This document shows, piece after piece, positions 34,301 through 64,000 of a stretch of 64,000 nt of DNA. Both the position numbers and the translations under genes were made by a program. Below the pieces are notes generated by a model. That model was not told the origin of the DNA and searched no databases. It worked only from the letters and a program-made list of their open reading frames with translations. Every line of letters begins with the position of its first letter. Positions within the stretch are counted from its first letter, which is position 1. Source of the DNA: an uncultured Holophagales bacterium (lineage in GTDB: Bacteria; Acidobacteriota; Thermoanaerobaculia; Multivoradales; UBA5704). The stretch is from positions 1,792,001 through 1,856,000 of the forward strand of contig CAWJGT010000003.1 in assembly GCA_963842525.1 (NCBI GenBank). Reading direction: 5' to 3'.

Positions 34301-34314
34301 ACGCCCAGATGGGG

Positions 34315-34341
34315 TGAGGGGGTCTCTCCTTCTCCCTCGTT
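34315..34341 (+). promoter_or_regulatory. TGAGGG-N17-CGTT motif copy 1 (upstream of sheath)
   Basis: TGAGGG 34315-34320, CGTT 34338-34341; same spacing as four other copies. Confidence 0.6.
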
Positions 34342-34453
34342 GTGTGGACGAGTAGATGAAGCGGCTCCTGGGGCGACCCGGAGCGGCGAGGCACCAACGA
34401 GAACTGTGCGCCCTGTCGGCCGGAAGGCGAGGGTCGCCAAGGAGAGAGCTCTT

Positions 34454-36388: not shown

Positions 36389-36899
36389 ATGGCTGCTCCA
36401 CTGTTCACTGTCAATGCGCACCGTTCCGACCCATATCGGACGTTCAAGTTTCAGGTCATCATCGACGGCAAGGTCGTCGCCGGCCTGCGCAAGATGGGCG
36501 CCCTCAAGAAGAAGACCGAACCGGTCAAGTGGCGCTCTTCCAACGACCCGTCGCACGAGCGGATCATGCCCGGCGGCACCAGCTATGAGCCGGTGACGCT
36601 GGAGCAGGGTCTGACGCACGACCCGGTGTTCGAGGCCTGGGCAAACCTGGTCAACAACATCGAGGGCGACGGTGCGGTCTCGCTCAAGAACTACCGCAAG
36701 GACATCGTCATCAACGTCCTGAACCTCCAGGGCCAGGTGGCGATCTCGTACAAGCTGTTCCGGGCGTGGATCTCGGACTACCAGGCGCTGCCCGATCTGG
36801 ACGCCGGCAACATGAACACGGTCGGCATTCAGAGCGATCACCCTGCAGCACGAGGGCTGGCAGCGCGACGGCAGCGTGGCGGAGCCGACGGAGAGCTAG
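36389..36899 (+). CDS. Tail tube protein (T4 gp19-like, Afp1/5-like); frameshift near 36835
   Basis: RSDPYRTFKF, MPGGTSYEPVTLEQGLTHD..FEAWA, YQALPDLDA. The shifted frame ends ITLQHEGWQRDGSVAEPTES*. Confidence 0.92.
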
Positions 36900-36902
36900 T
36901 CG

Positions 36903-37696
36903 ATGCTGCCCGGCGGACTCTGGCATCAGGGGGAGCGGCTCCGCGACTGGTCCTTCGCGCCTCTCACAGGCGCGGTGGAGCTGGCGATCGCGGAGGCCGC
37001 TCGCGGGGTGGGGAGCCTCCCCCAGCGGGTCACGGCGGTGCTGTCCGCCGCGCTGGGGGAGCTTGGAGGGGAGGTGGTGAGCCCCGAGGCGGTGCGCTCC
37101 CTCTGCGTCGCCGACCGGCAGTTCCTCATGCGGCAGCTCGCCGTCGTGCTCGGGGTGGGGGACGACTGGATGGCTGCATCGTGCAAGCGGTGCGGGAGCG
37201 CGTTCGAACGTGCCGATCCGCCATGCGGAGCTGCCGGTCAAGCCGGCGGGGCAGGGCTATCCGTTCGCGGAGGCCGAGACGAGCCTCGGTCCCTTGCGGC
37301 TGCGGGTCGCCACCGGCGCCGATCAGGAAGCGGTCGTGCGGATCGAGGACCCGGCGGAGGCCCGGCGCAAGCTCGCCCGGCGCTGCCTGGTCGAGCCGTC
37401 CGCCGGCAACCTTTCGGACGAAGATTTGGACCGGATCGACGCGGCGCTCGAGGAGGTCTCGCCGGAGCTCGTCGACACAGGCGCAGGTGGCCTGCGTCGA
37501 CTGCGGCAGCCCGAGCGAGCTGTTCCTCGATCCCTACGTCTGCCTCTCGCGGGCCAGCACGGAGATCTACTCGGATATCCACGTGCTCGCCTCCGTCTAC
37601 CACTGGAGCGAGCGGGAGATCCTGGGCCTGCCACGCGAGAGGCGCCAACTGTACATGGCCCTGGTCGACAGGGCGCGAGGAATAACGGCGGACTGA
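36903..37696 (+). CDS. eCIS baseplate/tail assembly chaperone-like protein with two CxxC motifs; frameshifts ~37210 and ~37478
   Basis: LCVADRQFL, CKRCG, LRVATGADQEAV, CVDCG, and C-terminal IHVLASVYHWSEREILGLPRERRQLY typical of post-tube eCIS genes. Confidence 0.72.
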
Positions 37697-37723: not shown

Positions 37724-39338
37724 GTGGGTTACCTGGCCGATGTAGTCGCCGACAGCCGCTCGCGGGGGACTCATGCCCCCATGCCGGAGGCTGCCGTGCC
37801 GGGGCTGGAGCCCGCGGAAGGAGAGGTCCTGGCGCCGGAGGAGATCACCGATCCCTTCCTGGACGCCGGGCCTCTCGTCAACGATCGGGCTGGGGCCGGG
37901 GTGGTGGGCTCATGGCCGCTGGAAGACCCGGCGGCCGCCGTCCGTAAGGAGGCAACCCCTTCTCCTCTGCGGGAAGACCGGAGAGTGGCTACGGGGGAGG
38001 CGAAATCCGAAAGGTGGAAGGGTCGTGAGGTCGGCGCTTCGGTGTCACCTCTTTTATCGGCTCCAACTGCTCGTAGGCAAGTACCCGAGCTCGCAAGTGA
38101 AGTCGCAGGACTCGTGGAGAGACCACAGGAGACCGCCACCCCGCCCCATCCGAATTTTGAACCTCACCCCCTGTCCCCCTCTCCCATCGCCCCCCCTGCC
38201 GCCGGGAGAGGGGGGACGCAGGCGGAGGCTTTGCGGGACAGGGAGCTCATTCGCTGATTCCAGGGACGTTGCCCCGACGCGCCCTCACCCCGGGTTGACA
38301 CCCGGGGCTACCCAGTTCCGCCCTCCGGGCTCCGGAATGCCCGGCTCTGGCGAGCCCGGAGGGCGCCATTCGGTAGCCCCGGGTGTCAACCCGGGGCGAG
38401 GGTCCCATGATCCCTTGGCCGCTGACCATGTGACCGATCTCGACGCAGGGGTGGGGCGCGGGCAGAGTCCTCACCCCCTGTCCCCCTCTCCCATCTCCCT
38501 TCCATCCCCCGCCGGGAGAGGGGGGACGCAGGCGGAGCGGCTGGGAGATACCACTCACTCTCTTGGAGCTGGGGCTGACAGAGGAGACGGAGGCCGGCGC
38601 GCTGAAGATCTACGAGGGGGTGGGCAGGGGGAAAAGCCCCAACGGGGCGCCGGCATAAAGCCTGGGGTTTCAACCCCAGGACAGCGGTCCGATTCCATCC
38701 CAAGCCCCGAAGGGGCGACGGCAGGGCAGCGGGGTTCTAACCCCGCGGGCGCGGCCCCGCCCGGGCATGAAGTGCCCGGGCTAGGAACGGCGCCGGGTGA
38801 ACCCGGCTTGAAGCCCCATTCATGGGGCGCTGTTGCTAGCCCGGCGACTTCATCGCCGGGCGGGATTGGCTCCCGAGAGCTCCCGGAGGACCCTCTCCCC
38901 CTGGCCCCCTCTCCCGTGCGTCCCCCGGCCCTCCACCCCGAACGGGAGAGGGGGAACGCTGTGGTGGCTGGTGGGGATGAGCCGACCGCAAGCGGCAAGG
39001 CCGTTTTCGCAGAGCCCGTCCCGCCGCGGCAGGACGGGGGGGTGGGAGCCTGGGACCGCGGGCGTCTCGCCCGCCCAGAGCCGAGCCGACAGCTTCAGCA
39101 CCGATCAGCGCCACCGCTGCCGCCCACCCAGGCCCTGTCCCTTCCTTCCTTGCCTCCTCTCGCCCGCCGGGCGGAGCGAGGCCAGGGAAGGGAGTCCCAG
39201 GCACCGCGCGTCAGCATCGGGACCCTCGAAGTCGTCATCACCGTGCCCGAGCCCACCGTTCCCCAGGAGGCTCCGGCCGCGCCACCTCCGAGCGCCGGCG
39301 AGTCGTTCGCCAGCCGTTTCTATCTGAGATCTCTGTAA
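37724..39338 (+). CDS. Low-complexity eCIS-associated protein, riddled with palindromic repeats and split by a stop/frameshift at ~38257
   Basis: N-terminus MGYLADVVADSR with RBS; C-terminus PRVSIGTLEVVI...FASRFYLRSL directly before the DUF4255 gene. The middle is largely translated REP sequence. Confidence 0.55.
38162..38227. repeat. CCTCACCCCCTGTCCCCCTCTCCC...GGGAGAGGGGGGACGCAGGCGGAG palindromic element
   Basis: Near-identical second copy at 38469-38537 and a related copy at 38891-38954. Confidence 0.8.
38288..38396. repeat. GTAG-type REP doublet (REPIN-like hairpin)
   Basis: Perfect 25-bp inverted repeat (38288-38312 / 38372-38396, GGTAGCCCCGGGTGTCAACCCGGGG) plus an inner 14-bp IR (38319-38332 / 38352-38365). 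Confidence 0.8.
38634..38820. repeat. REP cluster (AGCCCC.AAGGGGC / ATAAAGCCTGGGGTTTCAACCCCAGG family)
   Basis: Several short palindromes; the same family appears in reverse complement at 53706-53750. Confidence 0.7.
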
Positions 39339-39359: not shown

Positions 39360-39920
39360 ATGCCGCTTCCTCTCTCGTCCCTGTCGCGCGTGTGCCGGTA
39401 CGTGGCCGACTTCGTCGGCTCCGAGCTGGAGGCGAGCACGCACTCGGTCCGCGTGCTGATCGGCTCTCCGGCCGAGGCGGCCAAGGATGCCGAGACCGAG
39501 CACCGTATCAATCTGTTTTTCTATCTGATCGAACCGTCCGGCTTCGGCTTTGGCATGGCCCCGGGCGAGACCTGGCTGCTGCGCCTGCACTGCCTGATCA
39601 CGGCCTTTGGCGCCGCAGAAAGCCCGGTCAGCTCGGGGGAGAACGACCTGCGGCTGCTCGGCGAGGTCCTGCGCGCCTTCCACGAAAATCCGGTCCTTCC
39701 GCCGCTCGACATCGATGGCTCTACCGTGCGGATGCAGGCGGTTTTCGAGCCCCTCACCCTCGACCAAATCAATCACATCTGGTCGACCCAGGGGGACGTC
39801 ACCTACCGTCCGTCGGTCGGCTATGAGATGACCCTGCTGCCGGTCATACCGAAGACGCCGGCGGTGGCGAGCCCGCTCGTCGCCGCGATCGACGTCAGCG
39901 TCCATGCGGAGGAGCCATGA
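39360..39920 (+). CDS. DUF4255 / Afp16-Pvc16-like tail cap (terminator) protein
   Basis: INLFFYLIEP, LHCLITAFG, LLGEVLRAFHENPVL, IWST....YRPSVGYE; position directly before the AAA+ ATPase. Confidence 0.85.
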   Translation: MPLPLSSLSRVCRYVADFVGSELEASTHSVRVLIGSPAEAAKDAETEHRINLFFYLIEPSGFGFGMAPGETWLLRLHCLITAFGAAESPVSSGENDLRLLGEVLRAFHENPVLPPLDIDGSTVRMQAVFEPLTLDQINHIWSTQGDVTYRPSVGYEMTLLPVIPKTPAVASPLVAAIDVSVHAEEP

Positions 39921-41260
39921 GCGCCTGGGCACTGGGCGTCGAGCCGGAGAACGCCATCCTCGCGCGGCCGGAGCTGCTGCGCGCCGAGTGGGAGCGCATC
40001 GAGCTGCTCGGCCACTGCCTCGACCAGTCGCGGCGCGGTCAGGAGGTCGGGAAAGAGGTCATCTCGCGCCTCCAGGGCCTCCAGTCGGAGGTGCAGCAGT
40101 CGCGGCCGGATGCCTGGCGGATCGTCGATGCGCCCGACCTCGCGCCGCATGAGTACGACCTGCTGGCCTGCGCGGTGGCTCCCGAGGCCGAGCCCCGGCT
40201 CGGATGGCTCTTCCAGAGCCTCCAGCCCGGCGCACCGCAGCCCTATCCGACCCCTGCCTTCGTCCACGACCTGCTGGCCATGGACTCCCTGGAGGCGAAT
40301 ACGCTCTATGAAGCGCTCGCCGACGGCGGCAGGCTGCGCCAGCGCAACCTGATCCGCGTGGACGGGGAGGACCCCTACCAGCCGATCCGGCCCGGTCCGG
40401 GGATTGCCGCCCGCCTGCTTGGCCGTCAGGGAGGCGATGCGGCCCCGCCCGGCGCCGTCAAGGTCACCGCGCGGCCGGCCTGGGACGACCTCGTGCTGCC
40501 GCAGTCCCACCTCGCCATGCTGCGCGAGCTGCTGCTCTGGGTGCAGCACCGGCGCATCGTTGTCGAAGAGTGGGGTGGCGGCGAGGTCGGCGGACCGATC
40601 GCGCTCTTCGCCGGCCCGTCGGGCACCGGCAAGACCTTCGCTTCGGCGGTGCTCGCCGCCGAGCTCGGCTGGCCGCTCTATCGGGTCGACCTCGGCCAGC
40701 TCGTCAGCAAGTACATCGGCGAGACCGAAAAGAACCTGAACCGCCTCTTCGACGCCGCACACGGCCGGCCCATGGTCCTGCAGTTCGACGAGGCGGACAG
40801 CCTCTTCGGCAAGCGCGGCGAGATCAAGGAGGCGCGCGACCGCTACGCCAACCTGGAGGTCAACCACCTGCTGGCGCGCATCGAATCGCACCGCGGCCCC
40901 TGCATCCTGACCTCCAACCTGCGTCGCAACATGGACCAGGCCTTCGCGCGGCGCTTCCAGGTCGTGGTCGACTTCCCGCGCCCGGACGCCGAGTCGCGCT
41001 CACGCCTCTGGGCCCGCCTGCTGCCTCCGCGCGCCCCCCGCGCGGCGGACGTCGATCCCGAGTTTCTTGGCCTGGCGGCCAACCTGACCGGCGGCGGCAT
41101 CCGCAACGCCGCCCTCCACGCCGCCTACCTGGCAGCCGGGGCGGGCACGCCGATCACCCTGGCGCACGTGACCCTGGCGGTCTGGCGCGAGCTGGGCAAG
41201 GACGGCCGCGAGCTGTCGCGTACCGACCTCGGGCCGCTGGCGCCGTACCTGGCGGAATAG
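39917..41260 (+). CDS. eCIS AAA+ ATPase (Afp15/Pvc15-like)
   Basis: WDDLVLP, GPSGTGKT, VDLGQLVSKYIGETEKNL, FDEADSLFGKR, DRYANLEVNHLL, DQAFARRF. Confidence 0.93.
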   Translation: MSAWALGVEPENAILARPELLRAEWERIELLGHCLDQSRRGQEVGKEVISRLQGLQSEVQQSRPDAWRIVDAPDLAPHEYDLLACAVAPEAEPRLGWLFQSLQPGAPQPYPTPAFVHDLLAMDSLEANTLYEALADGGRLRQRNLIRVDGEDPYQPIRPGPGIAARLLGRQGGDAAPPGAVKVTARPAWDDLVLPQSHLAMLRELLLWVQHRRIVVEEWGGGEVGGPIALFAGPSGTGKTFASAVLAAELGWPLYRVDLGQLVSKYIGETEKNLNRLFDAAHGRPMVLQFDEADSLFGKRGEIKEARDRYANLEVNHLLARIESHRGPCILTSNLRRNMDQAFARRFQVVVDFPRPDAESRSRLWARLLPPRAPRAADVDPEFLGLAANLTGGGIRNAALHAAYLAAGAGTPITLAHVTLAVWRELGKDGRELSRTDLGPLAPYLAE

Positions 41261-41546: not shown

Positions 41547-42377
41547 ATGAAAGGAACCGCAGTCTTTCCCGCCGTGCTCCTTCTGGCCCTGACGGCCCAC
41601 CCTTCCCAGGCGTCCGTTGTCGCCAAGCTGACGTTCAACGGTGCCGGAACCGCGGCGCCCGTCGTCGTCCCCCTCAATATAGGCAACGTGCCGCTCGGCA
41701 CGATCGTGGACATCAACCTGGAGCTCTGCTTCAAGCAGCCGGCTTCGCCGCAGGGTTCCTGCGACCAGAGCGGAACGGTGAGCCTGGAAGAGCAACTCGC
41801 CCCACCGTTTTTCTTCGTCGCAGCGTTCCGCGAAGCCCTGGCAACGGGGGCGACGACACCGGTCAGCTTCCCCGTCACCCTCGCGGCAGGGCAGCGCCTG
41901 ATCGTGCTCAGCCACTGGGTTCCCGACCGGATCGGTTCAGTCACCGACTCCCTGGTGCTGCAAGGCTCCTCGGGCGCCGACACCGATATCTTCCGTGTCG
42001 ACCTCACAGGGTCGGGCGTGCCCTCCGGGGCATGTGTGCCGAGCTCTCAGGCGCTTTGTCTCGGCAACGGCCGCTTCAAGGTGCAGTCGGATTTTCTGAG
42101 CTCGACGGACTCGGAGGCGGCGCGGGGGGGCGAACTGACCGACGACACCGGGTATCTCTATTTCTTCAGCCCATCGAACGTCGAGGCAGTGGTCAAGGTG
42201 CTCAACGCCTGCTCGTTCAACAACCGGTTCTGGGTCTTCGCCGGCGGTTTGACCGATGTGCGCACCGTGATCAGCGTCACCGACACGCAACGAAATGTCG
42301 TCAAGACCTATATCAACCCCCAAGGGACGCCATTCCGGCCAATCCAGGACACCGGCGCCTTCGCTACCTGTCCGTGA
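41547..42377 (+). CDS. Secreted protein: signal peptide, Ig-like region and C-terminal 'LCLGNGRFKV' Cys-containing domain (passenger in the eCIS locus)
   Basis: GAGGAGG RBS; MKGTAVFPAVLLLALTAHPSQA signal; CVPSSQALCLGNGRFKV...DDTGYLYFFSPSNVEAVVKVLNAC..NNRFWVFAGGLTDV...IQDTGAFATCP. Confidence 0.8.
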   Translation: MKGTAVFPAVLLLALTAHPSQASVVAKLTFNGAGTAAPVVVPLNIGNVPLGTIVDINLELCFKQPASPQGSCDQSGTVSLEEQLAPPFFFVAAFREALATGATTPVSFPVTLAAGQRLIVLSHWVPDRIGSVTDSLVLQGSSGADTDIFRVDLTGSGVPSGACVPSSQALCLGNGRFKVQSDFLSSTDSEAARGGELTDDTGYLYFFSPSNVEAVVKVLNACSFNNRFWVFAGGLTDVRTVISVTDTQRNVVKTYINPQGTPFRPIQDTGAFATCP

Positions 42378-42407: not shown

Positions 42408-42434
42408 TGAGGGTCCCCGGCGGCCGTGAGCGTT
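42408..42434 (+). promoter_or_regulatory. TGAGGG-N17-CGTT motif copy 2
   Basis: TGAGGG 42408-42413, CGTT 42431-42434; followed by CCTGTCGGCGGAGAGG shared with copy 3. Confidence 0.7.
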
Positions 42435-42464
42435 CCTGTCGGCGGAGAGGAGAACGAAGCCGAC

Positions 42465-43115
42465 ATGATGCTCAACCTGACCAAGGCCGCCTTGATCGAA
42501 TATGCGCTCTCCGTTCCGCCGCTCGCGCTGGTCTTCGACCTCAACCCGGAGAGCCTGACGCGCACGCGCACGGTCACCCTGCGCAACGGCGGGACGAACG
42601 CCACCCGTGGCGGCTATGACTTCAAGCTGCCCACCGAGACCCCCCGCGCTGCGCTGGGGATCGCCGTGCAGCCCGAGATTTTCAGCATCGAGGTCCTGTT
42701 CAACGCCACCGACCGCATGAACGACGGTGATCCGCAGGCTTCGGTCCTGGGCATCCAGCCCGAGCTCGACACCCTGCGCACCATGGTCGAGCCGAAGTCG
42801 CAGGGACCGGGCGGGTTCCAGATGCTCGCCAGCCTGGGCCTGGGCGGTCAGCGCGCGTTCCAGCGCCAACAGTCGGCCTCGGTGCTGCTGTTCGTCTGGG
42901 GCACCCACCTGCTGCCCGTCTTCCTGACCAGCGTGCGGGTGACCGAGAAGGCCCACCTGCCGTCGCTCGTCCCCTACCGCGCCAACGTCGCCCTGCAGAT
43001 GCAGGTCATCGAGGGGAACAACCCCTTCTACACCGTGGAGAAGGTCCGCCAGGTGGCGAGCGCGGCGGTCAACACCGGGCGCGCCGCCGGCGTCATCGTG
43101 GGAGGGCTCTTCTGA
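42465..43115 (+). CDS. CIS tube-initiator-like protein (Afp7 N-terminal part)
   Basis: FDLNPESLTRTR, LGIQPELDTLRTMV, VLLFVWG..LLPVFLTSVRVTE....LVPYRA pattern; precedes the LysM and hub genes. Confidence 0.78.
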   Translation: MMLNLTKAALIEYALSVPPLALVFDLNPESLTRTRTVTLRNGGTNATRGGYDFKLPTETPRAALGIAVQPEIFSIEVLFNATDRMNDGDPQASVLGIQPELDTLRTMVEPKSQGPGGFQMLASLGLGGQRAFQRQQSASVLLFVWGTHLLPVFLTSVRVTEKAHLPSLVPYRANVALQMQVIEGNNPFYTVEKVRQVASAAVNTGRAAGVIVGGLF

Positions 43116-45980: not shown

Positions 45981-46032
45981 CCTGTCGGCGGAGAGGCGAA
46001 CGACGCCGGTATGACCCCGAGAGGGAGGTCCT

Positions 46033-53847: not shown

Positions 53848-53874
53848 TGAGGGGGTCCGGGCTCGGGCAGCGTT
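53848..53874 (+). promoter_or_regulatory. TGAGGG-N17-CGTT motif copy 4
   Basis: TGAGGG 53848-53853, CGTT 53871-53874. Confidence 0.68.
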
Positions 53875-53937
53875 CCATACCGCGGAGTGGACGGCCGCCG
53901 CCGTCGCAGCCGATCGATTGACAAGGGACAGGCCGAC

Positions 53938-56805: not shown

Positions 56806-56829
56806 GGGGACTCGGGACCGACTGGCGTT
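56803..56829 (+). promoter_or_regulatory. TGAGGG-N17-CGTT motif copy 5 (its TGA is the stop codon of paralog 1)
   Basis: TGAGGG 56803-56808, CGTT 56826-56829. Confidence 0.68.
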
Positions 56830-56894
56830 CCTACCACGAGCCCGCCGCCGTGGCGGAGCCGCAGCAGACAACCGAGATCAGGATCGAAAACGAG

Positions 56895-59681
56895 ATGAAG
56901 ACACAGATCTCCAGAGATGGATACCGCGCCGACAAGCGCTACTCCGGCGTCTATCAGCAACAGGGCCGGATGATCACCGACCGCGATTGGAACGAGCTGG
57001 TCGATATCCTGAAAGCCCGCCTCGACACGGGGCTGGCCGACGTCGTGGGCAGCGGCGTGCCGCGCGAGCATGCCGTCGCGCTGCGCAAGGGCGCGCAGGG
57101 GCTGGAGATCCGGCCAGGTGTGGTCTACGCCGGCGGCGTGGCCGCGCAGATCGGATCCTCCTACGGACCTTCGACGTTCTTCGGCTACGACCAGCAGGTC
57201 GACTTTCCGTCGCCCCCCCTGCCGCAGGCCAACCAGCCGTACGTCGTCTATGCGGACGTCTGGGAGCGTCCGGTCTCCGCGCTGGAAGACGAAGGGCTGC
57301 GCGATCCGGCCCTGAACGGAGCCGACACGACGACGCGTACCCAGACGATGGCCCAGATCAAGTGGGCCCCCACCGGAAAGAAACCCGAGGACGCGGGCCA
57401 GAACCCGCCGCGCGGCAACGGGACGCTCTCGGTGAGCGTACCGGCGGCGAGCTCGGGCGATCCGCTGGGCGGCACCGACGCGGCCGGCGGGGACTACCTG
57501 TTCCGCCTGGAGGTCCACGACGTGACCTGGCCGTCGAACGCGGCTCCGGACGCGCCGGGCCGCGTGGTCCTCAAGTGGTCCCGCGAGAATGGAGCCGAGC
57601 AGCACAAGGCCCTGGAGGCCCCCAGCTCCTTCCGGTCCGGGCCCTGGATCTACGAGCTGTACCAGCTCGCGAACGAGAAGACCCTCGGATTCCATTACGC
57701 CACCTCCTGGCAACCGGGCCGCGGCGAGCTGTACACCGTGTTCCCTTCCCTGTCCTCCCAGGCGCACCAGAGCCATTTCCTGCGCCGCTGGGACGGCTAC
57801 TGCGTCCTCCAGCTCCAGAGCAACAAGTCCTGGGGTTTCTCCTCCAATCAGGTCGAGGAGCCGAGGCGGACGGCTCCGGGGGCGACGGTCCAGCTCGAGA
57901 GTGGACGACTCATCGTGCGGCTCCTCGACCTCGAGCTCGACCTCGACATCCAAGGCCGGACCTTCCTGGCCGGAGACTACTGGCAGGTGCCGGTCCGCCG
58001 CGCCCTCCACCAGCCCGGAACCCAGATCGTCCAGTCGGCTCCGCCGGCGGGCATTACGCACCGCTATGTGACCCTGGGCTCGGTGAGCGCCACGGGCGAC
58101 GTGACGCCGCGCGCCACCTTTCCGCCCCTGACCGCCCTCCAGGCAGGCGATGTGGGCTACGACGGCAGCGGCTGCACGACCGGTCTCTTCAATGGCTCCC
58201 ACGATACGGTGGAGAAGGCCCTCAACCGTCTCTGGCAGCTCGCCGCCGAGCACGTCGCGTACACCAAGCCCGCGGACAGCTCGCTCTACAAGGGCAAGAC
58301 CATCGCCAATGCCAAGAATGCCCTGGACCTGCTGAGCGACGTCCGCGCGCGGCAGATCCTCTATGACGGAAGGACGGGCGTGCCGGACGTCCAGGCCGCT
58401 CTCGACACGCTGTACACCCGTCCCAGCGGCGACTCCTGCGGCTATACGGTCGGCACGGGCGGAGAATTCGCCAACATCGACACGGCAATCCAGACGTTGA
58501 TGACCCAGCAGAGGCAGGATATCCGCCTGATGCTGCTGCCGGGCGACCACGTGCTGAGCGCGAAGCTCCGTCTTCCTCAGCGACCGCAACGTCCACCTGA
58601 CCTTCACCGGCACCGGCTGGGCATCCCGCCTGATCATCAACAAGGCATTCTCGATTCAGACGCCCGCCTCCGTGACCTTCCAGGGCCTGCACATCGAATT
58701 CCAGGGAACGGGCTCTCTCGTGAGCCAGGGCGGCGAGGTCAGCTTCCTGGACAACCGCATCACCGGCGTCTCCACGGCTGCCCTGATCCGGCCCCAGATC
58801 TGCTCGCGCATCCTGTTGCGCGACAACCTGGTCGAGGTCTCGGAGATCGACCCGACGCTCGAGCCGGTCTCGATCCTCGCGCCGCTCGACACCGAGGCCG
58901 CGATCCAGCAGTTGTTCTCGACGCGCTCGCCGCGGCTTTTCGCGCTGCGCGCCAATGCGATCGACGACAGGATCGCTGCGCTCACCGAGGCCGAGCGCCT
59001 GCAGCGGTCGGACGCCATCCAGATGCAGTTGAACAAGTTTCCCGACCTGCCGAAGGCCGCGTACAACACCTTCCTGATGAACCTCCGGGCCGGAGCCCGG
59101 GGCTTCCTCAACAACACCCTCTCCGCGGTCCGCGTCGAGGCCTTGCAGCGGGCGCGCCCCGGCCTCTTTCTCCAGCTCGACTCTCCCCTGTCGCCGCTGC
59201 GGCTGGAGAGCAATCAGATTTTCGGCTACGTGAGCCTCTACGGCGCTCCGGGAGGAGACCTCACCTACACCGAGCTGCGCAACTTCAGCAGTCAGGTGGG
59301 GAACACACTCTTCGATTCACAGGCTCGACACGACCTGATCGCCACCGGCAACCGGATGAGCGGATTCCGCGTCACTGCACACACCTTCAGCTCGATCCGC
59401 ACGGGCACCCACATCACCCCGCTTTTCCAGCGCATCACGCTGACGGACAACACCTTCGAGGCCGGAGGCAACCAGCTCGTCGCGTGCAACGTCGAGCTCA
59501 GCTCGAACCTGTACACAGCGCCGACCTTCGGCTGGGCCATCGGGGAGGAGGTCCTGCTGATGAGCAACGTGGCGCGCATCGATGTCGGCCTCGACGTGGT
59601 CACCCGGAACATGGTGTCGACCGGCAACTCGACGCGCATGAAGATCCGGCGGATCACGCCGAGCTCCCCGCCACGCCATGA
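56895..59681 (+). CDS. DUF6519-like eCIS protein (putative tail fibre), paralog 2; frameshifts ~58575 and ~59655
   Basis: Collinear with paralog 1 (MKTQISR, YSGVYQQQGRMITDRDWNE, EPVSILAPLDTEAA, STRSPRLFALRANA). The ELPATP* end overlaps the next ATG, like paralog 1's ELAPTVP*. Confidence 0.78.
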   Translation: MKTQISRDGYRADKRYSGVYQQQGRMITDRDWNELVDILKARLDTGLADVVGSGVPREHAVALRKGAQGLEIRPGVVYAGGVAAQIGSSYGPSTFFGYDQQVDFPSPPLPQANQPYVVYADVWERPVSALEDEGLRDPALNGADTTTRTQTMAQIKWAPTGKKPEDAGQNPPRGNGTLSVSVPAASSGDPLGGTDAAGGDYLFRLEVHDVTWPSNAAPDAPGRVVLKWSRENGAEQHKALEAPSSFRSGPWIYELYQLANEKTLGFHYATSWQPGRGELYTVFPSLSSQAHQSHFLRRWDGYCVLQLQSNKSWGFSSNQVEEPRRTAPGATVQLESGRLIVRLLDLELDLDIQGRTFLAGDYWQVPVRRALHQPGTQIVQSAPPAGITHRYVTLGSVSATGDVTPRATFPPLTALQAGDVGYDGSGCTTGLFNGSHDTVEKALNRLWQLAAEHVAYTKPADSSLYKGKTIANAKNALDLLSDVRARQILYDGRTGVPDVQAALDTLYTRPSGDSCGYTVGTGGEFANIDTAIQTLMTQQRQDIRLMLLPGDHVLSAKLRLPQRPQRPPDLHRHRLGIPPDHQQGILDSDARLRDLPGPAHRIPGNGLSREPGRRGQLPGQPHHRRLHGCPDPAPDLLAHPVARQPGRGLGDRPDARAGLDPRAARHRGRDPAVVLDALAAAFRAARQCDRRQDRCAHRGRAPAAVGRHPDAVEQVSRPAEGRVQHLPDEPPGRSPGLPQQHPLRGPRRGLAAGAPRPLSPARLSPVAAAAGEQSDFRLREPLRRSGRRPHLHRAAQLQQSGGEHTLRFTGSTRPDRHRQPDERIPRHCTHLQLDPHGHPHHPAFPAHHADGQHLRGRRQPARRVQRRAQLEPVHSADLRLGHRGGGPADEQRGAHRCRPRRGHPEHGVDRQLDAHEDPADHAELPATP

Positions 59682-62600
59682 GCAGCGGACCGGCCGTCGC
59701 CCACAAGGCCGCGGAGGCCGGGAGGCAGCGCACGCCGTCTCCCGTCCCGGCCGGCCCCTCGCCGCAGCGGGAGGAGATCCGCAGTGCCCTCTCGCGTGAC
59801 GAGGAGTACCGCCTCGCGCGCACCGAGGACGGCGGCATCGTCCTGTACTTCCATCCGCGGGACTACTTCACCTGGTCCGATCCCCTCGGCGAGACCTTCG
59901 GCCGCTACGTGCTCCACGTCTTCCCGGGAGCCACCCGGGAGGACGCCGAGGAGTGCGCGCGCGACAACGGGGTCTTCTGGGTGCAACGGGTCCCCGAGGA
60001 TGCCGCGGGCCGCGGCCTGGTCCCCATCACGATCCAGGGGCCTCTTCACTCCCAGGTCAAGGCCTGGTTCAAGACGCACCGCCCCGGCCTCCTGCCGGTG
60101 GAGCCCGCGCCCGGATTCTTCCGCCTGGCGGACACGCGTCCCGACCGCAGATCGCTGGACGTGATCCGTACCTTCGTGCCGAAGGGGGCGCTCGTCCTCC
60201 AACCCGACGTAGGGACCTTCGTCCAGGGGAGCACCATCAAGGCGGCCGTCGAGTTCGCCGGCGACTCCGCCAACGAGCGCCTCAACCTCTATCCCAGCAT
60301 GGCCGCCTTCGACTGGACGGTCGTCGATGCGAACGGCCAGGAAGTCCTGACCGGCCCCCTCTTCGAGGGGCGCGGCACCCGCATCTACGAATTCGAGCTG
60401 AGCGAAAAGGGCCGCTACGAGGTCCGGGTCACGGTCTCCAGCCGGTGGTTCAGCACCGGCGACTTCACCCCGCCGCCGGTCTCGATCCTGGTGGTCAGCG
60501 AAGCGCAGCGCGAGAAGGAGGTCTTCGACCTGCTCCTCACCGGCCCCGGCGAGGAGGCCCCGTTCGAGCGCGTCGGCAGCGAGCTGCGTCTCAAGCCCGG
60601 CGCCGAGCCTCTCTCGGTGGACCGGGAGGTCGAGAAGGCCGACTTCTGGGTCCGGCTCGTCGACCGGATGCAGGCGAGAGGGCAGATCACGGAAGAGCAG
60701 GCCGAGGAGTTCCGCGAAGTCTGGACGGACCGCAAGGAGATGCTCGAGGAGAAGAGGGAGCTGCTGACCGGCACTACGCCATACATCGCCTACGGGAGCT
60801 TCCTCGATGCCACCACCTCCGCCTATCTGCCTCTCCAGGTCGCCCTGCGCGGCGAGAGGCGGAACGAAGGATCCTCCCTCGGCTTCAGCTTCCGACTGCT
60901 CGACTTCACCCTGGCGCCGTACGACCCGCCGCTCCACTCGGGCGAAGCCGAGGTGGAGGTCGCGTTCGGCGACGAGCAGACGGCGACCCGCCGGGCCGAG
61001 ATCGCGGCCCTCGACGAGCTGGCCGGGCACTGGCAGTCCAACAACAGCTATCCGGACGGCACCGTGCGTCTCGTCGTCCGGCTCTCCGACGGGACCCTCT
61101 ACGAGAGGCCGCCCATCGACACCCGCAGCGCCAAGAAGGACGTGCAGCAGGCCGCGGGCAAGGTGGCCCTGGTCCTCGGCGCCGTGGCGCTCGGCATCTC
61201 CCTGATCAATCCCGTCGGCATCCTTTTCGTCGTCGGCACGGGCGCGGGCGTCCTCGCGGCCGGCGCCGGGCTGACCGATGTCGGCCTGCGGCTGGAGCAG
61301 CGCATCCAGACCCACACGCTGCACGCCGACCGCCAGGTGGCGCTCGACTGTCTGCAGGTGGCCGCCACGATCGCCGGCATCGGCGGCATGGCCCGGGCGG
61401 TGCGCTCCGGCAGGGTGCTGAGCGACGGCCGCCTCCTGGTCGGCATGGCCGGCCTGGACGTGGCGCAGGGGATGGTCCTGACCGCCGACGTGCAGGCGCG
61501 CATCCTGGAGGTCGAGGCCGACTACCACAGCCGCGCCGCGGCGCTCCAGGAGCAGGGGAATGCCGTCGAGGGGGACCTGAAGGCGCTCGCCGTCGAGAGG
61601 GACACCGCCGTCGCGAACATCCTCGGCGAGGCCGCCATCGGCGGCGGCTTCCTCCTGGTCTCGCTGGGCAGGGGAGTCAAGGACATCAGAAACCACGTGC
61701 GGAGGGTGGCGGCGAGCGGCGACCCGCGGCTCATCCGCAACACCCTGGGGACCGACCGCGTCCTCACTCCGGACGAGGTGCGCCAGCTCAACACCGCGCT
61801 CGAAGCGGCCGAGCCGCCGGCGAGGATTGAAGAGCCGCCCACGGCCACCGCGAAAGTGGAAGAGCCGCTGCCCGCGCCGCCGAGGGTCGAAGAGCCGGTG
61901 AAGCCCGAAGCCAGGGTGGAAGAGCCGCCCCCCGCAACGGCGAAGATCGAGGAGCCTGCCAAGCCCGGGCCGAAGGTGGAAGAGCCCGGCACGCCGGAGA
62001 AGCCCAGGCCTCCCAGGCCCGCAAGTCCAGAGCCCGCCGCAACGGTCCGTCCGGTCCCCGAGGTCCGGGGACTGGTGACCCTCCCCGCCAAGCCGGTCCG
62101 GCCCGGCGAGCTGCGCTACGACTACCAGACCTGGCTGCGCTCCGAGGTCGAGCATCCGGTCTCGGAGGCGCGGCGCGCGCGGGCCGCCGAGCTGGCGGAG
62201 CGTCTGGCCGGCTTGGACAAGAGGCAGCGCAACGTCGACAAGGTCACGCGACAGCTCGACGAAGCCGAGATCGAGGCCCGGGAGGCAGCCCTCGAGGAGC
62301 CCAAGACGGGAGAGGCGCCGCCGCCACCTTTCGACGAAAAGGCCCATCAGGCCGCCCGCGAGCGCAACGCGGCGGAGCAGCAGCAGATCCTGGCGGACAC
62401 CGTCCCCCTGATGCACGCCCTGCAGGAGCACGCCAACTCGTCCCTGTCCACGGACATGGGCGGCACCCCGGCCCAGATGCTCGACCTCCAGGGACGCCTC
62501 AATCCACCCGAGATCCGGGGCCTCCACATCGAGCTCGGCCGCGAGCGGTTCGTCAAGCTGCTCGGCGCCGGCCCCGACGTCGTCGGCCGGTTCCTGGACG

Positions 62601-63601
62601 TGCGCCGCCAGACCAACCTCACCCGGACCGGCCGCCTCCGCCTGCTCGAGATCCTCGACCTGCACCGCAGCGGCGCCCTCGACGACGCCCGCCTCTCCCA
62701 GGCGCTCGACGAGTGCCGGGACTTCCTGACCCTTTATCCGAACGGGATCAAGGGGGACTTCCGGCGCATGGCCGCGGCGTTCGATCCGGCCGCCCGCGTC
62801 TCCACGGTCGAGGCGCTCCCCACCTCCGAGCTGTACCTGCGGGCCCAGTCGGGGGACGCGGATGCCGCCCACGAGCTCGAGCTGCGGCGCCAGAGCCTCT
62901 CCACCGAAGAGCTCCAGACCGCCGCCCAGCAGGCCGAACAGGCCGCGCGGCGGGCCCGCAAGGCCAAGCGCAAGGACGAGGCGCGGAGCGCCAAGGGCGA
63001 GCAGGACCGGCTCAGAACCCTGCTGGCCGAGCGCAACGTCCTCTTCACAGGGGTCCGCACCACCGACGGCCCCTTCACCACCCACCCCGAGCTGCGCAGA
63101 GTCTTGGAGAACGACCTCCGCAAAAGCCGGGTCGTGGGCCGGATCGACATCCCGCAGTCCGATGCCGCCGTCGAGGGAGGCACCCTCGGAGCCGCGCGCA
63201 CCGACATCCCGGGCGTCGGCCCCCGCAAGCTCTTCCTCGGCCGCTCGCCCAAGGCGCACGCCGAGGGAGAGGCCTCGACGATCAATCCCAGGTACAAGGC
63301 CCCGGCCGAGACCGCGGCCGCCCACGGGCACGCCGAGCAGACCCTGGTCGGCAACCTCGCGGACGACATCGACCAGCTCATCAAAGCCGGCAAGCTGACC
63401 CAGGCGGACCTCCAGGGGAAGACCGTCTGGATGCTCATCGATCAGGAAGTCTGCAGCTACTGCGGCTCCGGCCTGGACAGCCCCGTCGCTCCCGGCGTGC
63501 TGGCGCAGTTCAGCCAGGACTTCCCGCTGCTCACCATCCAGATCAAGAACCTGCGGACCAGCGACCTCATCATCCTGAGGGGCGGCCGCCGGATCAATTA
63601 G
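59678..63601 (+). CDS. Putative eCIS effector: large polymorphic-toxin-like protein with hydrophobic segment, Pro/Glu repeats and a C-terminal Zn-dependent deaminase domain
   Basis: GHAEQTL ... DQEVCSYC (HxE..CxxC) near the C-terminus; hydrophobic VALVLGAVALGISLINPVGILFVVGTGAGVLAAGAG; lies directly after the structural genes. Confidence 0.78.
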   Translation: MSSGPAVAHKAAEAGRQRTPSPVPAGPSPQREEIRSALSRDEEYRLARTEDGGIVLYFHPRDYFTWSDPLGETFGRYVLHVFPGATREDAEECARDNGVFWVQRVPEDAAGRGLVPITIQGPLHSQVKAWFKTHRPGLLPVEPAPGFFRLADTRPDRRSLDVIRTFVPKGALVLQPDVGTFVQGSTIKAAVEFAGDSANERLNLYPSMAAFDWTVVDANGQEVLTGPLFEGRGTRIYEFELSEKGRYEVRVTVSSRWFSTGDFTPPPVSILVVSEAQREKEVFDLLLTGPGEEAPFERVGSELRLKPGAEPLSVDREVEKADFWVRLVDRMQARGQITEEQAEEFREVWTDRKEMLEEKRELLTGTTPYIAYGSFLDATTSAYLPLQVALRGERRNEGSSLGFSFRLLDFTLAPYDPPLHSGEAEVEVAFGDEQTATRRAEIAALDELAGHWQSNNSYPDGTVRLVVRLSDGTLYERPPIDTRSAKKDVQQAAGKVALVLGAVALGISLINPVGILFVVGTGAGVLAAGAGLTDVGLRLEQRIQTHTLHADRQVALDCLQVAATIAGIGGMARAVRSGRVLSDGRLLVGMAGLDVAQGMVLTADVQARILEVEADYHSRAAALQEQGNAVEGDLKALAVERDTAVANILGEAAIGGGFLLVSLGRGVKDIRNHVRRVAASGDPRLIRNTLGTDRVLTPDEVRQLNTALEAAEPPARIEEPPTATAKVEEPLPAPPRVEEPVKPEARVEEPPPATAKIEEPAKPGPKVEEPGTPEKPRPPRPASPEPAATVRPVPEVRGLVTLPAKPVRPGELRYDYQTWLRSEVEHPVSEARRARAAELAERLAGLDKRQRNVDKVTRQLDEAEIEAREAALEEPKTGEAPPPPFDEKAHQAARERNAAEQQQILADTVPLMHALQEHANSSLSTDMGGTPAQMLDLQGRLNPPEIRGLHIELGRERFVKLLGAGPDVVGRFLDVRRQTNLTRTGRLRLLEILDLHRSGALDDARLSQALDECRDFLTLYPNGIKGDFRRMAAAFDPAARVSTVEALPTSELYLRAQSGDADAAHELELRRQSLSTEELQTAAQQAEQAARRARKAKRKDEARSAKGEQDRLRTLLAERNVLFTGVRTTDGPFTTHPELRRVLENDLRKSRVVGRIDIPQSDAAVEGGTLGAARTDIPGVGPRKLFLGRSPKAHAEGEASTINPRYKAPAETAAAHGHAEQTLVGNLADDIDQLIKAGKLTQADLQGKTVWMLIDQEVCSYCGSGLDSPVAPGVLAQFSQDFPLLTIQIKNLRTSDLIILRGGRRIN
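61810..62000 (+). repeat. 30-nt (10-aa) coding tandem repeat, [KR][VI]EEP x6
   Basis: RIEEPPTATAKVEEPLPAPPRVEEPVKPEARVEEPPPATAKIEEPAKPGPKVEEPG. Confidence 0.8.
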
Positions 63602-63613
63602 CAGGAGACGTAC

Positions 63614-64000
63614 ATGCCGTTCATCCAAGACAAGGAACCCGCCGCCGCGGTCTGGCGCCGGTTCCTGGAGAAGTCCGCCACGCCCCTTGGACCCGTCCCC
63701 GACCGGCAGGAGGTCCGCCGCATCCTCGCGCAATCGCCCACGGCCGCGCTGCCGGCTCTCGCCATGGGCGGCCTGCCCGCTGTCGGTGGGCTCGTGCAGG
63801 GTGCCACGAATGAGGATGCCCAGACCGTCTGGAGCAAGATCGCCGACGTCAAGACGAAGGCCGAGCCGGGACAGCCGGAGACGCCGCAGCAGACGCGCGC
63901 CCATCAGGCCATCCAACAGATGCTCTCCATCCCCGAAGGGATCACGCTCGTCCGGCAGCTCGGCCGGCTCTTCGGCAAGCGCGACAAGCCGACCTTGGAA
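63614..64000 (+). CDS. Hypothetical protein (partial), candidate second eCIS cargo
   Basis: AGGAG RBS; ATG 63614 is open to the window end (MPFIQDKEPAAAVWRRFLEKSATPLGPVPDRQEVRRILAQ...). Missing from the ORF track because it has no stop. Confidence 0.7.
   Translation, partial: MPFIQDKEPAAAVWRRFLEKSATPLGPVPDRQEVRRILAQSPTAALPALAMGGLPAVGGLVQGATNEDAQTVWSKIADVKTKAEPGQPETPQQTRAHQAIQQMLSIPEGITLVRQLGRLFGKRDKPTLE

Follow-up and report, generated by a model that had tools for sequence, protein, structure and literature searches.

A contractile injection locus, probably acidobacterial, with two DUF6519 fibres, a deaminase-like cargo and a six-copy promoter-like motif

The genes in a 64,000-nt stretch of DNA (the window) were annotated using Pfam and NCBIfam, and genes of an extracellular-type contractile injection system (eCIS) were found to span positions 34,454-63,601 (Table 1). 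The locus is unexceptional within a known family of toxin-injection machines that resemble phage tails, and its source is probably an acidobacterium. The sheath and the inner tube were matched by PF04984, PF17482 and PF06841, the tube being broken by an extra base, and an Afp15-type AAA+ ATPase (PF00004) and an Afp16-type DUF4255 cap (PF14065) were also present. Pfam, NCBIfam and comparison with the PDB recognised the baseplate (gp25, gp6/J) and a VgrG-like spike. The eCIS assignment and gene list of a first-pass annotation were thus borne out, including a single sheath and a single tube (with one tube initiator besides) and three baseplate genes, two Baseplate_J-like and one P2-I-like, the last below the Pfam cut-off. 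However, the gene at 36903-37696, which had been called a chaperone, encodes instead a T4_baseplate-like zinc-ribbon protein, and this match was seen only via intact relatives (L001, E 1.1e-6). As previously suggested, no PAAR gene was found in the scanned window ORFs, nor was one present in 49 ORFs near the spike of five relatives. The reported lack of head, terminase, portal and T6SS membrane-complex genes also held, as the scanned ORFs of window 1-64000 gave no match to capsid, terminase, portal, TssJLM or ClpV families. Lysis or release genes were absent from the window, and no afp6 equivalent was identified in the locus. The upstream neighbours of the eCIS genes are NRPS/PKS and regulatory genes.

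Table 1. Positions of genes, repeats and motif copies in the window
Feature	Position	Strand	Details and evidence
Motif copy 1	34315..34341	+	Motif end 113 nt 5' of sheath ATG
Sheath, 637 aa	34454..36367	+	PF04984, PF17482; starts MPTYLRPGV after RBS AAGGAGAGAG
gp19-type inner tube	36389..36899	+	Pfam, E 9e-32
T4_baseplate (PF12322)-like protein	36903..37696	+	Two CxxC pairs, zinc-ribbon; intact relatives
Tape-measure-like gene	37724..39338	+	Position and conserved termini; N-terminus VGYLADVVADSR, C-terminus IGTLEVVI...SRFYLRSL
Acido-Lenti-1 (RF01687) copies in tape-measure-like gene	38288-38331, 38353-38396, 38635-38680	+, -, -	
DUF4255/Pvc16_N cap protein, 186 aa	39360..39920	+	Pfam, E 2.8e-26
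AAA+ ATPase	39917..41260	+	CDC48/p97-type rather than ClpV-type; Pfam, NCBIfam
Small conserved ORF, ~73 aa	41261..41484	+	31-35% identity to L001-L003 ORFs
Insertion 1, secreted protein	41547..42377	+	Signal-peptide-like N-terminus; not in five relatives
Motif copy 2	42408..42436	+	In 63-nt leader 42406-42468, ending with tube-initiator ATG
Tube initiator (CIS_tube-like)	42465..43115	+	Weak match, E 0.0048; relative L004 2.4e-4
LysM / tail-X-like protein	43115..43405	+	Pfam, NCBIfam
gp27-like hub	43409..44564	+	Via L001 orthologue
Insertion 2, antisense gene	44501..45553	-	Three frame segments; starts MSNIYFDLTEELNAEG at 45511
104-nt tandem repeat	45623..45864	.	Repeat scan; 2.3 copies, 88% matches
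Motif copy 3	45954..45982	+	Leader 81% identical to 42406-42468
gp5/gpV-type OB spike, 271 aa	46033..46848	+	E 1.6e-22; GTG start after GAGGGAGG
gp25 baseplate wedge	46860..47258	+	Pfam
Baseplate-J-like protein 1	47251..48450	+	Partial TIGR02243 match, E 4.5e-20
Baseplate-J-like protein 2	48447..51460	+	Pfam; ~1,000 aa in relatives
P2-I / gp7-like baseplate protein	51451..53187	+	Tail_P2_I-like, E 0.0023, below Pfam cut-off; start approximate
Motif copy 4	52863-52889	+	Inside P2-I / gp7-like gene
Intergenic Acido-Lenti-1 copies	53530-53575 (below cut-off), 53705-53750	-, +	
Motif copy 5	53848..53876	+	Motif scan
Fibre 1, DUF6519 (eBAP5 anchor)	53938..56805	+	Pfam
Motif copy 6	56803..56831	+	Overlaps fibre 1 stop codon
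Fibre 2, DUF6519	56895..59799	+	52-55% identical to fibre 1
Cargo, 1,307 aa	59678..63601	+	Deaminase-like C-terminal domain
Next ORF	63614..64000	+	No family match (Pfam, NCBIfam); runs past window end

Among the matches listed, the five closest loci were gene-for-gene syntenic with the window; four of them (L001-L004) belong to Desulfobulbaceae, Syntrophobacteraceae and an unclassified deltaproteobacterium, and the fifth (L005) to Chromatiaceae. A search of genome contigs with the ATPase recovered at least 575 relatives. The small ORF 3' of the ATPase was found at the same place in relatives, and the L001 orthologue of the hub matched VgrG-like CIS spikes over their N-terminal ~340 residues (9rce_F, E 7e-8). 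The cap protein lacks a C-terminal domain of ~160 aa that was present in 5/5 relatives, whose cap ORFs measure 350-394 codons stop-to-stop in comparison with 186 aa in the window and align over the first ~190 residues.

The sheath was compared with those of solved structures, phages and metagenome-assembled genomes (MAGs). The best solved matches were the Streptomyces CIS sheaths 8bky/8bl4 (E 6e-86), followed by Pvc2 (4.5e-49), Afp3 (2e-47), tCIS 7b5h (6e-43) and AlgoCIS 7adz (6e-41), whereas pyocin (5e-8) and phage (5e-5) sheaths were far more distant and no T6SS TssC matched among solved structures. In 50,697 phage records, none of the 197 with a match covered 80% or more of the sheath, and the best were 33-41% identical at a coverage of at most 68%. 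The possibility that the sheath is of prophage or T6SS type was therefore not supported by these comparisons. In the sheath tree, the window grouped with Thermoanaerobaculia and Desulfobacterota-type sequences in a clade (SH-aLRT 100) separate from every Streptomyces row. The nearest sheaths came from Thermoanaerobaculia MAGs (77%), and the best named relatives of sheath and cargo were both of this origin; together with three matches to the Acido-Lenti-1 RNA motif, this makes the proposed acidobacterial host plausible.

The first-pass annotation had reported no recognisable tape measure. The data showed that a tape-measure-like counterpart, recognised by position and terminal motifs, is present at 37724-39338 and is kept in 5/5 syntenic relatives, although no Pfam or NCBIfam match supporting Afp14/gp29 homology was obtained for 37724-38254, 37746-39335 or L004:5596-6516. 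The middle of this gene consists of hairpin repeats, and the gene is swollen by palindromic Acido-Lenti-1 repeats. The copies at 38288-38331 and 38353-38396 together form a 121-nt palindrome (-109.9 kcal/mol). Three Acido-Lenti-1 copies scored 39.5, 37.2 and 37.2 bits (Rfam gathering cut-off 37 bits) and two more scored 33.1 and 24.3. Two foreign insertions divide the operon, one carrying the secreted-protein gene and the other the antisense gene. Neither of these two inserted genes gave a match to Pfam, NCBIfam or PADLOC families, nor did the small ORF or the next ORF, and the two inserted ORFs showed no likeness to each other.

A bipartite motif, TGAGGG-N17-CGTT, occurred in six copies in comparison with 0.17 expected, and 0/100 shuffles gave six; a stricter form occurred in four copies against 0.05 expected. 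All copies lie on the + strand within the eCIS locus, and five of the six sit 57-140 nt upstream of gene starts. The regulon-like motif of the first-pass annotation, with a site at 34313, was borne out. The six copies represent only three duplication groups. The motif was found in 0/5 close loci and, in a set of 80 loci, in two with one match each. Its geometry is like that of an ECF-sigma -35/-10 pair, and no regulator for it was found within the window. A sigma-54 promoter, suggested by the upstream sigma-54 activator (32510-34072), was considered and rejected: 40 matches with two or fewer mismatches were counted in comparison with 52 expected, and no sigma-54 site lay on the + strand between 34073 and 34454. 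A small antisense ORF lies between this activator and the sheath. A sigma-70 scan of 34-54 kb gave 0 sites against 0.7 expected, the RNA structure of two leaders was unremarkable (z = -1.2 and 0.0), and Rfam returned no match at 34040-34470 or 45400-46060. The leader that carries motif copy 3 contains, at 46011, a relic ATG that is out of frame. RfaH, GerE and BTAD, the eCIS regulators named in the available portions of the literature, leave the motif unexplained; with its six copies, it provides a testable handle on the switching-on of such loci.

Ten single-base frame changes disrupt seven eCIS genes, and nine of the ten are a single extra base. In the tube, an extra G at ~36836 moves the last 20 codons to the next frame; the T4_baseplate-like gene has extra bases at ~37207-37209 and ~37479, the tape-measure-like gene a frame change between 38236 and 38254, and the hub gene an extra G at ~44162. 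Baseplate-J-like gene 2 has frame changes at 48570-48610 and ~49829, fibre 1 an extra C at ~55639 and a missing G at ~55830 with 63 codons out of frame between them, and fibre 2 an extra C at ~58566. Two long ORFs, 36389-37696 and 48520-53187, arise from chance read-through from one gene into another. The upstream NRPS/PKS genes were broken alike (~15150-15175, ~3650-3700 and ~3506), and truncated domains suggest further breaks at ~4700 and ~30380. When 19 genes were read as 29 segments, no in-frame stop was found in 8,857 codons. Since the NRPS/PKS genes are broken too and in-frame stops are absent, the ten frame changes are, as judged from the sequence, most likely assembly or consensus errors of the record. 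Frame changes peculiar to eCIS were rejected on account of the NRPS/PKS breaks, and so was programmed +1 frameshifting or quadruplet decoding, for which no common site was found; no sequence context (TCGA, GATC or others) was enriched at the indel sites. The record contains ~1 indel per 3-4 kb, and its automatic gene calls are therefore unreliable; faults included ORFs that were fused or truncated and a start of the cargo placed 77 codons late. If the frame changes were real, the machine could not be built.

The fibres were found to be duplicated, in agreement with the earlier annotation, as two paralogous DUF6519 genes. DUF6519 corresponds to the eBAP5 fibre anchor in the available part of PMC12923769, and a search of the PDB with the fibre gave no match. 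The N-terminus of the cargo is disordered and hydrophobic segments lie in its middle; it also has 10-aa VEEP repeats (61815-61994) and, at ~63140-63598, a C-terminal deaminase-like toxin domain that retains an HAE...CxxC signature with a spacing of 38 residues. The C-terminal 208 aa retrieved 265 cluster representatives at E<=1e-3. In an alignment of 17 homologues and the window's own domain, H-A-E-Q and C-x-x-C were invariant in 18/18 sequences, which bears out the deaminase-like designation; in a set of 38 sequences, E66 and C108 were invariant and H64, A65 and C105 were kept in at least 90%. All Pfam matches were below threshold. The only recurring family was PF14424 Toxin-deaminase, which matched six of the 18 rows (best E 0.0027) and six of 63 homologues (20.1-21.6 bits in comparison with the 29.6-bit cut-off), one match spanning profile positions 15-143 of 146; PF00383 and PF14437 matches in homologues were likewise sub-threshold. 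The signature is like that of the PF14424 BURPS668_1122 deaminases, although the match stays below the Pfam cut-off. The domain had no sequence or profile match in the PDB. eCIS_core (DUF4157) was detected in 12 of the 18 rows and in 11 of the 63 homologues, but the window's cargo itself had no eCIS_core match; the C-terminal toxin domain is common to this cargo and many eCIS_core proteins. eCIS-associated toxins that combine DUF4157/eCIS_core with a deaminase end, such as EAT11, are, as far as the available text of PMC8213781 describes them, likewise 3'-terminal in the operon, with a long linker and the HAE...CxxC signature.

The locus was then set against known systems. In the available part of PMC6899500, an Afp14 homologue is absent from all of lineage II, VgrG is split into gp27 and gp5 ORFs in the subtypes IIa and IIb as well as IIc, PAAR is absent from subtype IIb only, and divergent afp12/afp13 equivalents occur in IIa and IIb; the IIb profile is given as no afp10 (PAAR), a split afp8, afp12/13, a single afp11, and afp6. 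The absence of PAAR, the split gp27/gp5 and the absence of Afp14 have thus already been published there, and the description of the locus as a divergent variant is not supported as a novelty. By comparison with the same partial source, the window shares with IIa/IIb the core set of Afp1/5, Afp2-4, Afp7, Afp8, Afp9, Afp11, Afp15 and Afp16 equivalents, and also has the split VgrG, afp12/13-like genes, no PAAR and no Afp14 homologue. By gene content alone its traits are mixed, with two J-like genes as in IIa/IIc and PAAR absent as in IIb. Beyond IIa/IIb, the window has the two insertions, the six motif copies, the short cap and the repeat-swollen tape-measure-like gene. The Streptomyces CIS (CIS-Sc, subtype IId) has the closest solved sheath and, in the available text of PMC10066040, resembles the window in its single sheath gene and the absence of an Afp14-type tape measure. 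However, in that description its VgrG is contiguous, it has two genes for the tube and it lacks a conventional fibre, whereas the window has hub and spike in separate ORFs, a single tube, two DUF6519 fibres and a sheath of a different clade. Afp/PVC (lineage I) share the overall machine and gene families with the window, but their sheath comes in three paralogues, PAAR and an Afp14 tape measure are present, and their Afp13 fibres are adenovirus-like; the Afp/PVC sheaths match that of the window only at E 1e-38 to 1e-49.

We consider it probable that the locus encodes a lineage II (IIa/IIb-like) extracellular-type CIS of a high-GC genome, probably that of a Thermoanaerobaculia-like acidobacterium. 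By homology, the predicted baseplate comprises gp25, a pair of gp6/J-like proteins and one gp7/P2-I-like protein, and the other predicted parts are a LysM protein, a tube initiator, a single tube and a single sheath, together with a DUF4255 cap and an assembly ATPase of the CDC48 type; VgrG is split between a gp27-like hub and a gp5/gpV spike, and this spike would form its own tip without PAAR. The two DUF6519/eBAP5 fibres would bind targets, perhaps with two specificities given the two paralogues. On contraction of the sheath, the tube together with the spike would be pushed into the target and so deliver the 1,307-aa cargo, whose C-terminal HAE/CxxC domain may deaminate a nucleic-acid or nucleotide substrate. 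The TGAGGG-N17-CGTT copies may be promoters for one factor and could re-start transcription after each foreign-DNA split of an ancestral compact operon, and the frame changes would be consensus errors of the record and not biology. With this locus, lineage II eCIS, on which little experimental work exists, gain an acidobacterial (Thermoanaerobaculia-like) example, one whose fibre pair is clear and whose toxin domain is common to hundreds of eCIS_core proteins.

A further reading, to which we give little credence, is that the operon was rewired in cis by copying a promoter-like element for a dedicated factor to each foreign-DNA split, namely the secreted-protein gene, the antisense gene with its tandem repeats and the Acido-Lenti-1 cluster, and that the Acido-Lenti-1 'sRNA' motif is a palindromic mobile element. 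Acido-Lenti-1 could then sit in-frame in coding sequence, like Rickettsia palindromic elements, and would stretch the tape-measure-like protein from ~340 to 538 codons; the particle would therefore perhaps be longer.

Recent pseudogenisation, in which the frame changes, truncated cap, repeats and insertions reflect true decay of a locus that makes no particle, appears unlikely. Seven genes are broken, the cap has 186 aa in comparison with ORFs of 350-394 codons in relatives, palindromic repeats lie within 37724-39338, and ~10-12 breaks were counted in 25 kb of the eCIS against ~5-7 detected in 34 kb upstream. However, break detection is easier within the eCIS because orthologues are at hand there, and NRPS/PKS and response-regulator genes outside the locus are broken too. 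Ten indels with no nonsense codon in 8,857 are unlike neutral decay, codon bias and identity to relatives are unreduced 3' of each break, and the single extra base seen in nine of ten cases is commoner in technical bias.

A lineage II eCIS is also preferred to a cytoplasmic, Streptomyces-like contractile system, not released but acting to kill or remodel the cell that makes it, which we regard as improbable. Such a system would be consistent with the best solved sheath matches (8bky/8bl4; PMC10066040, available text), with the absence of lysis genes from the window and with the hydrophobic segments of the cargo, a likeness to the membrane-associated Sle1-type effectors in the accessible part of PMC13277306. 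The two DUF6519/eBAP5 fibres and the gp7/P2-I-like protein argue against it, Streptomyces clusters being without a conventional fibre in the source text at hand, as do the split VgrG, which is not split in subtype IId in the available part of PMC6899500, and the separation of the sheath clade (SH-aLRT 100) from all Streptomyces rows. A prophage tail module, an R-type tailocin or a T6SS is very improbable. Phage tails and T6SS draw on the same families for sheath, tube, baseplate and spike, but head, terminase, portal, lysis, TssJLM, TssB/C and ClpV matches were absent from the scanned window ORFs, phage sheaths reached at most 41% identity and 68% coverage, and the DUF4255 cap, the CDC48-type ATPase and the DUF6519 fibre were present. 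In addition, close homologues of the cargo toxin domain carry eCIS_core, and the genes upstream of the locus are NRPS/PKS and regulatory genes.

Raw ORF lists were full of chance frames because the G+C content of the window is about 70%. Genes were called using GC3 frame plots, an HMM of codon usage for which the long genes of the window itself were the training set, Pfam and NCBIfam scans, and comparison with five syntenic relatives. The genes of the eCIS locus lie on the + strand between 34,454 and 63,601, except for one antisense gene. Their order is sheath, gp19-type tube, PF12322 T4_baseplate-like zinc-ribbon protein, tape-measure-like gene, DUF4255/Pvc16_N cap, AAA+ ATPase, a small conserved ORF, a secreted protein, CIS_tube-like tube initiator, LysM/tail-X protein, gp27-like hub, the antisense gene (- strand), gp5/gpV spike, gp25, two Baseplate_J/TIGR02243-like proteins, a P2-I-like protein, two DUF6519 proteins (fibres 1 and 2), a 1,307-aa protein (the cargo), and a further ORF 3' of the cargo that is cut by the window end. 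No match to capsid, terminase, portal, lysis, PAAR, TssJLM, TssB/C or ClpV was found among the ORFs scanned within the 64-kb window (37 + 31 + 12 ORFs, plus another 88 stop-to-stop ORFs, 55 aa or longer, on the + strand). The family scans, the five relatives and the absence of head and T6SS genes from the ORFs scanned bore out the gene list proposed in the first-pass annotation.

Upstream of the locus are NRPS/PKS megasynthase genes and genes for an OmpR-type response regulator, a hydrolase, a GNAT protein, a rhomboid and a sigma-54 activator. The first 30 kb (1-29828, - strand) are taken up by the NRPS/PKS assembly line, whose domains are of the C, A, T, MT, KS and AT types. The response regulator (29786-30448) is preceded by an apparent short histidine-kinase ATPase-domain remnant across frames (region 29105-30448). 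The sigma-54 enhancer-binding protein (32510-34072) lies just 5' of the locus, with a small antisense ORF (34053-34298, - strand) between it and the sheath gene, and no match to the sigma-54 consensus was found between the activator and sheath genes. A 38%-identical enhancer-binding protein is encoded in one Syntrophobacteraceae relative (L003:85-1527), 2.5 kb upstream of its sheath gene.

The ATPase, which is CDC48/p97-like and not Clp-like, had at least 575 relatives when used as a query, and the best 80 loci were kept. Among these, five loci (L001-L005) matched the whole ATPase at 50-66% identity and were gene-for-gene syntenic with the window; they come from Desulfobulbaceae, Syntrophobacteraceae (two loci), an unclassified deltaproteobacterium and Chromatiaceae. 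The top database homologues of the sheath showed 87% and 78% identity, the next 77% and 66% (both Thermoanaerobaculia MAG), and further ones from Geobacter, Syntrophus and Desulfosarcina about 61%. A quick IQ-TREE tree of 64 sheaths (the window's, 50 from the 80 loci and 13 database proteins, with one locus dropped for a short match) grouped the window and those database proteins with L001-L005 (SH-aLRT 100), and all Streptomyces rows fell outside this clade; its rows exclude lineage I, phage and T6SS sheaths, and the tree hence has no bearing on those alternatives. In the PDB, the best sheath matches were the Streptomyces CIS sheaths 8bky and 8bl4 (6e-86; 8bky is a structure entry linked to a Streptomyces CIS paper), followed by PVC, Afp, tCIS and AlgoCIS (1e-38 to 1e-49), pyocin (5e-8) and phage sheath (5e-5), and no TssC match was returned. 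In a phage collection 197 records matched, the best at 33-41% identity, and none of the 197 covered at least 80% of the sheath. An acidobacterial host is plausible, since the cargo aligns at 47% identity with a Thermoanaerobaculia MAG protein over 1,296 positions and the window holds three Acido-Lenti-1 motifs at or above the Rfam gathering score, an RNA motif listed for Acidobacteria and Lentisphaerae in Table 1 of Weinberg et al. (PMC2864571); it is not proven, since each of the markers is open to horizontal transfer.

Passages of Chen et al. 2019 (PMC6899500) describe afp10 (PAAR) as missing from subtype IIb only, lineage II as generally without afp14 homologues, gp27 and gp5 ORFs as a split afp8 in IIa, IIb and IIc, divergent afp12/afp13 as present in IIa and IIb, and afp11 as present in two copies in IIa and IIc. 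No PAAR was found in the window or in the 49 ORFs of the spike neighbourhoods of the five relatives. VgrG is split: the hub orthologue of L001 aligns with VgrG-like CIS spikes over their N-terminal ~340 residues, and the window spike with their C-terminal part. By these two traits, together with the presence of fibre genes, a gp7/P2-I-like gene and a pair of J-like genes, the locus is assigned on gene content to lineage II, with a mixture of IIa and IIb traits. Since the traits match lineage II as those passages describe it, the features treated at first as unusual are lineage-typical. The DUF6519 domain is described as the eBAP5 baseplate-anchor domain of eCIS fibres (PMC12923769). Identity between the two DUF6519 copies is 55% for residues 17-642 and 52% for 640-962, so the earlier description of duplicated fibres stands.

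Features of the window by position; distances run from motif start to start codon
Feature	Position	Strand	Remark
NRPS/PKS megasynthase genes	~340-29,760	-	upstream of locus
Motif copy	34315	+	140 nt to sheath ATG
Motif copy	42408	+	57 nt to tube initiator
Motif copy	45954	+	79 nt to spike GTG
Motif copy	52863	+	inside P2-I-like gene
Motif copy	53848	+	90 nt to fibre 1
Motif copy	56803	+	92 nt to fibre 2
Hairpin repeat	38162-38235		middle of tape-measure-like gene
Hairpin repeat	38469-38545		middle of tape-measure-like gene
Hairpin repeat	38892-38975		middle of tape-measure-like gene
Insertion 1	41485-42464		codes for secreted protein, no known family
Insertion 2	44565-46032		antisense gene, 104-nt tandem repeat (2.3 copies), duplicated leader
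Frame change, tube	~36836		...GIQS[G]ITLQHEGW...; bracketed G at frame switch
Frame changes, T4_baseplate-like gene	~37207 and ~37479
Frame change, tape-measure-like gene	between 38236 and 38254		one change needed
Frame change, hub	~44162
Frame changes, large J-like gene	48570-48610 and ~49829
Frame changes, fibre 1	~55639 and ~55830		extra C, then lost G; 63 codons out of frame between
Frame change, fibre 2	~58566		extra C

For several genes, the orthologues of the relatives aligned to the window in two or three frames, and at the junctions conserved residues were perfectly continuous around one surplus base. Ten frame changes were located in the locus, nine of them with a surplus base, and the antisense gene also shifts frame. 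That they are specific to the locus was rejected, since changes of the same kind occur in the upstream NRPS/PKS and regulator genes. The NRPS/PKS region has at least three: a condensation domain is split at ~15150-15175, and an adenylation domain at ~3650-3700 and again at ~3506. A methyltransferase domain ends at profile position 59/164 and resumes weakly in another frame. The Trans_reg_C domain of the response regulator ends at position 54/77. No sequence context common to the indel sites was found. One main rival explanation is real decay, by which the locus would be dead. Read as 29 segments, the 19 eCIS-region genes comprise 8,857 codons with no stops, and codon bias and identity to the relatives are unchanged downstream of each break. 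Because the indels are many, nonsense codons are lacking and the spread is window-wide, the ten frame changes point to consensus errors in the sequence record, which derives from a contig of 2.0 Mb. Fibre 2 continues for ~48 codons beyond the position corresponding to the end of fibre 1 and overlaps the cargo ATG (59678) by ~120 nt (59650-59800), an overrun that may conceal one more frame change.

The mechanism of the locus is most likely the standard eCIS one. By homology, the baseplate and split VgrG would nucleate tube and sheath polymerisation with the ATPase assisting, the DUF4255 protein would cap the particle, the two eBAP5 fibres would choose targets, and contraction would deliver the cargo. 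The other main rival is a cytoplasmic system of the Streptomyces kind, against which the fibres and the split VgrG argue. The locus is of modest interest, for its six-copy motif, its repeat-swollen tape-measure-like gene and its error-laden record.

The motif TGAGGG-N17-CGTT, taken for regulon-like on first inspection, proved to be enriched: six copies occur in 64 kb, all on the + strand and within the locus, against 0.17 expected from dinucleotide-preserving shuffles (0/100 shuffles reached six). The stricter form TGAGGG-N16-GCGTTCC was observed four times against 0.05 expected. Five copies precede gene starts. The copies are not independent: the leaders 42406-42468 and 45952-46014 are 81% identical, including an ATG now out of frame in the second, and 52861-52902, 53846-53887 and the fibre-2 copy are mutually related, which leaves three groups, still above expectation. 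Four copies lie directly 3' of breaks in the ancestral operon: one each after insertion 1 and insertion 2, neither of which any of the five relatives has, one after the gap in front of fibre 1, which is filled with repeats, and one at the duplication of the fibre gene. The exceptions are the first copy and the one within the P2-I-like gene. We infer that the copies are promoters for one factor, and their -35/-10-like spacing and CGTT box may resemble those of ECF sigma promoters. No ECF-type factor was found in the 64-kb window, none of the five relatives has the motif, and the leaders had no significant RNA structure. In the two Syntrophobacteraceae loci, TGAGGG(T/A) occurs 5' of the sheath gene (L002:~780-800, L003:~3935), without CGTT at N17, and these loci share another upstream block, AATsGTGAGCGCTTCAGC. 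The tandem repeat of insertion 2 (45623-45864, 88% matches) lies between the antisense gene start and the spike leader and had no Rfam match.

The DUF4255 cap protein has 186 aa and adjoins the ATPase via an ATGA overlap; the cap ORFs of the relatives are longer, at 350-394 codons, and align with it over no more than their first ~190 residues. Between the T4_baseplate-like and cap genes, all five relatives have a stop-to-stop ORF of 337-353 codons whose N-terminus (e.g. MGFLMDVIRD) and C-terminus (RIGQVNVIV...FLRSL) are conserved and whose middle is disordered. The tape-measure-like gene of the window has both conserved termini (37724..., ...39338) and is 538 codons long. Besides the hairpin repeats, it contains a 121-nt palindrome of two Acido-Lenti-1 units (-109.9 kcal/mol, z = -12.2) and one more Acido-Lenti-1 unit. 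One frame has no stops over 923 nt and the other five have 4-9; a given frame was open in 0.48% of shuffles of this tract. A protein search with the open frame returned nothing beyond the gene call of the window itself and two short palindrome matches, and since conserved homologues were lacking there, the repeats are regarded as dispersed elements and not conserved tape-measure sequence. The palindrome (38276-38408) is read in one and the same frame in the predicted proteins P0142, P0143 and P0144 (...PGLTPGATQFRPPGSG...EPGGRHSVA.GVNPG.G), and in P0143, on another contig, it is flanked precisely by a D-Ala-D-Ala-ligase-like domain (residues 83-327) on one side and a GNAT domain (365-516) on the other. 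The RPEs of Rickettsia are palindromic elements inserted in frame, and the palindrome in these proteins could be an insertion of this kind. It could also be gene-caller read-through, since three of the six frames of the element are open.

The 1,307-aa cargo had no match in Pfam, NCBIfam or PADLOC. Its homology with the Thermoanaerobaculia protein begins as early as residue 30, in keeping with a start at the ATG at 59678; the database gene call starts 77 codons downstream. The C-terminal ~145 residues of the cargo make up a domain that recurs in 265 cluster representatives (E<=1e-3), at the ends of 700-1,900-aa proteins or alone. The eCIS_core domain (DUF4157) was present in 12 of the 18 rows of a domain alignment (17 homologues and the window's own) and in 11 of 63 scanned homologues (the 51 shortest and 12 long ones from the best 150), and PT-HINT in 2 of the 63. 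Because of this association, the domain is predicted to be an eCIS-linked polymorphic toxin module. H-A-E-Q and C-x-x-C occur without exception in 18/18 sequences and are near-invariant in 38. PF14424 Toxin-deaminase was the sole recurring family on the domain, always below cut-off, in 6 of the 18 rows (best E 0.0027) and 6 of the 63 homologues (20.1-21.6 bits against 29.6), one match spanning profile positions 15-143 of 146. Sequence and profile searches of the PDB with the domain gave no match. The cargo is probably a deaminase-like toxin. Published eCIS toxins already include deaminases with DUF4157 (EAT11; PMC8213781). The cargo linker contains six tandem 30-nt units (61815-61994) encoding a 10-residue repeat, xxxVEEPxxx, and in the Thermoanaerobaculia homologue a different stretch, rich in proline as well, lies at this position.
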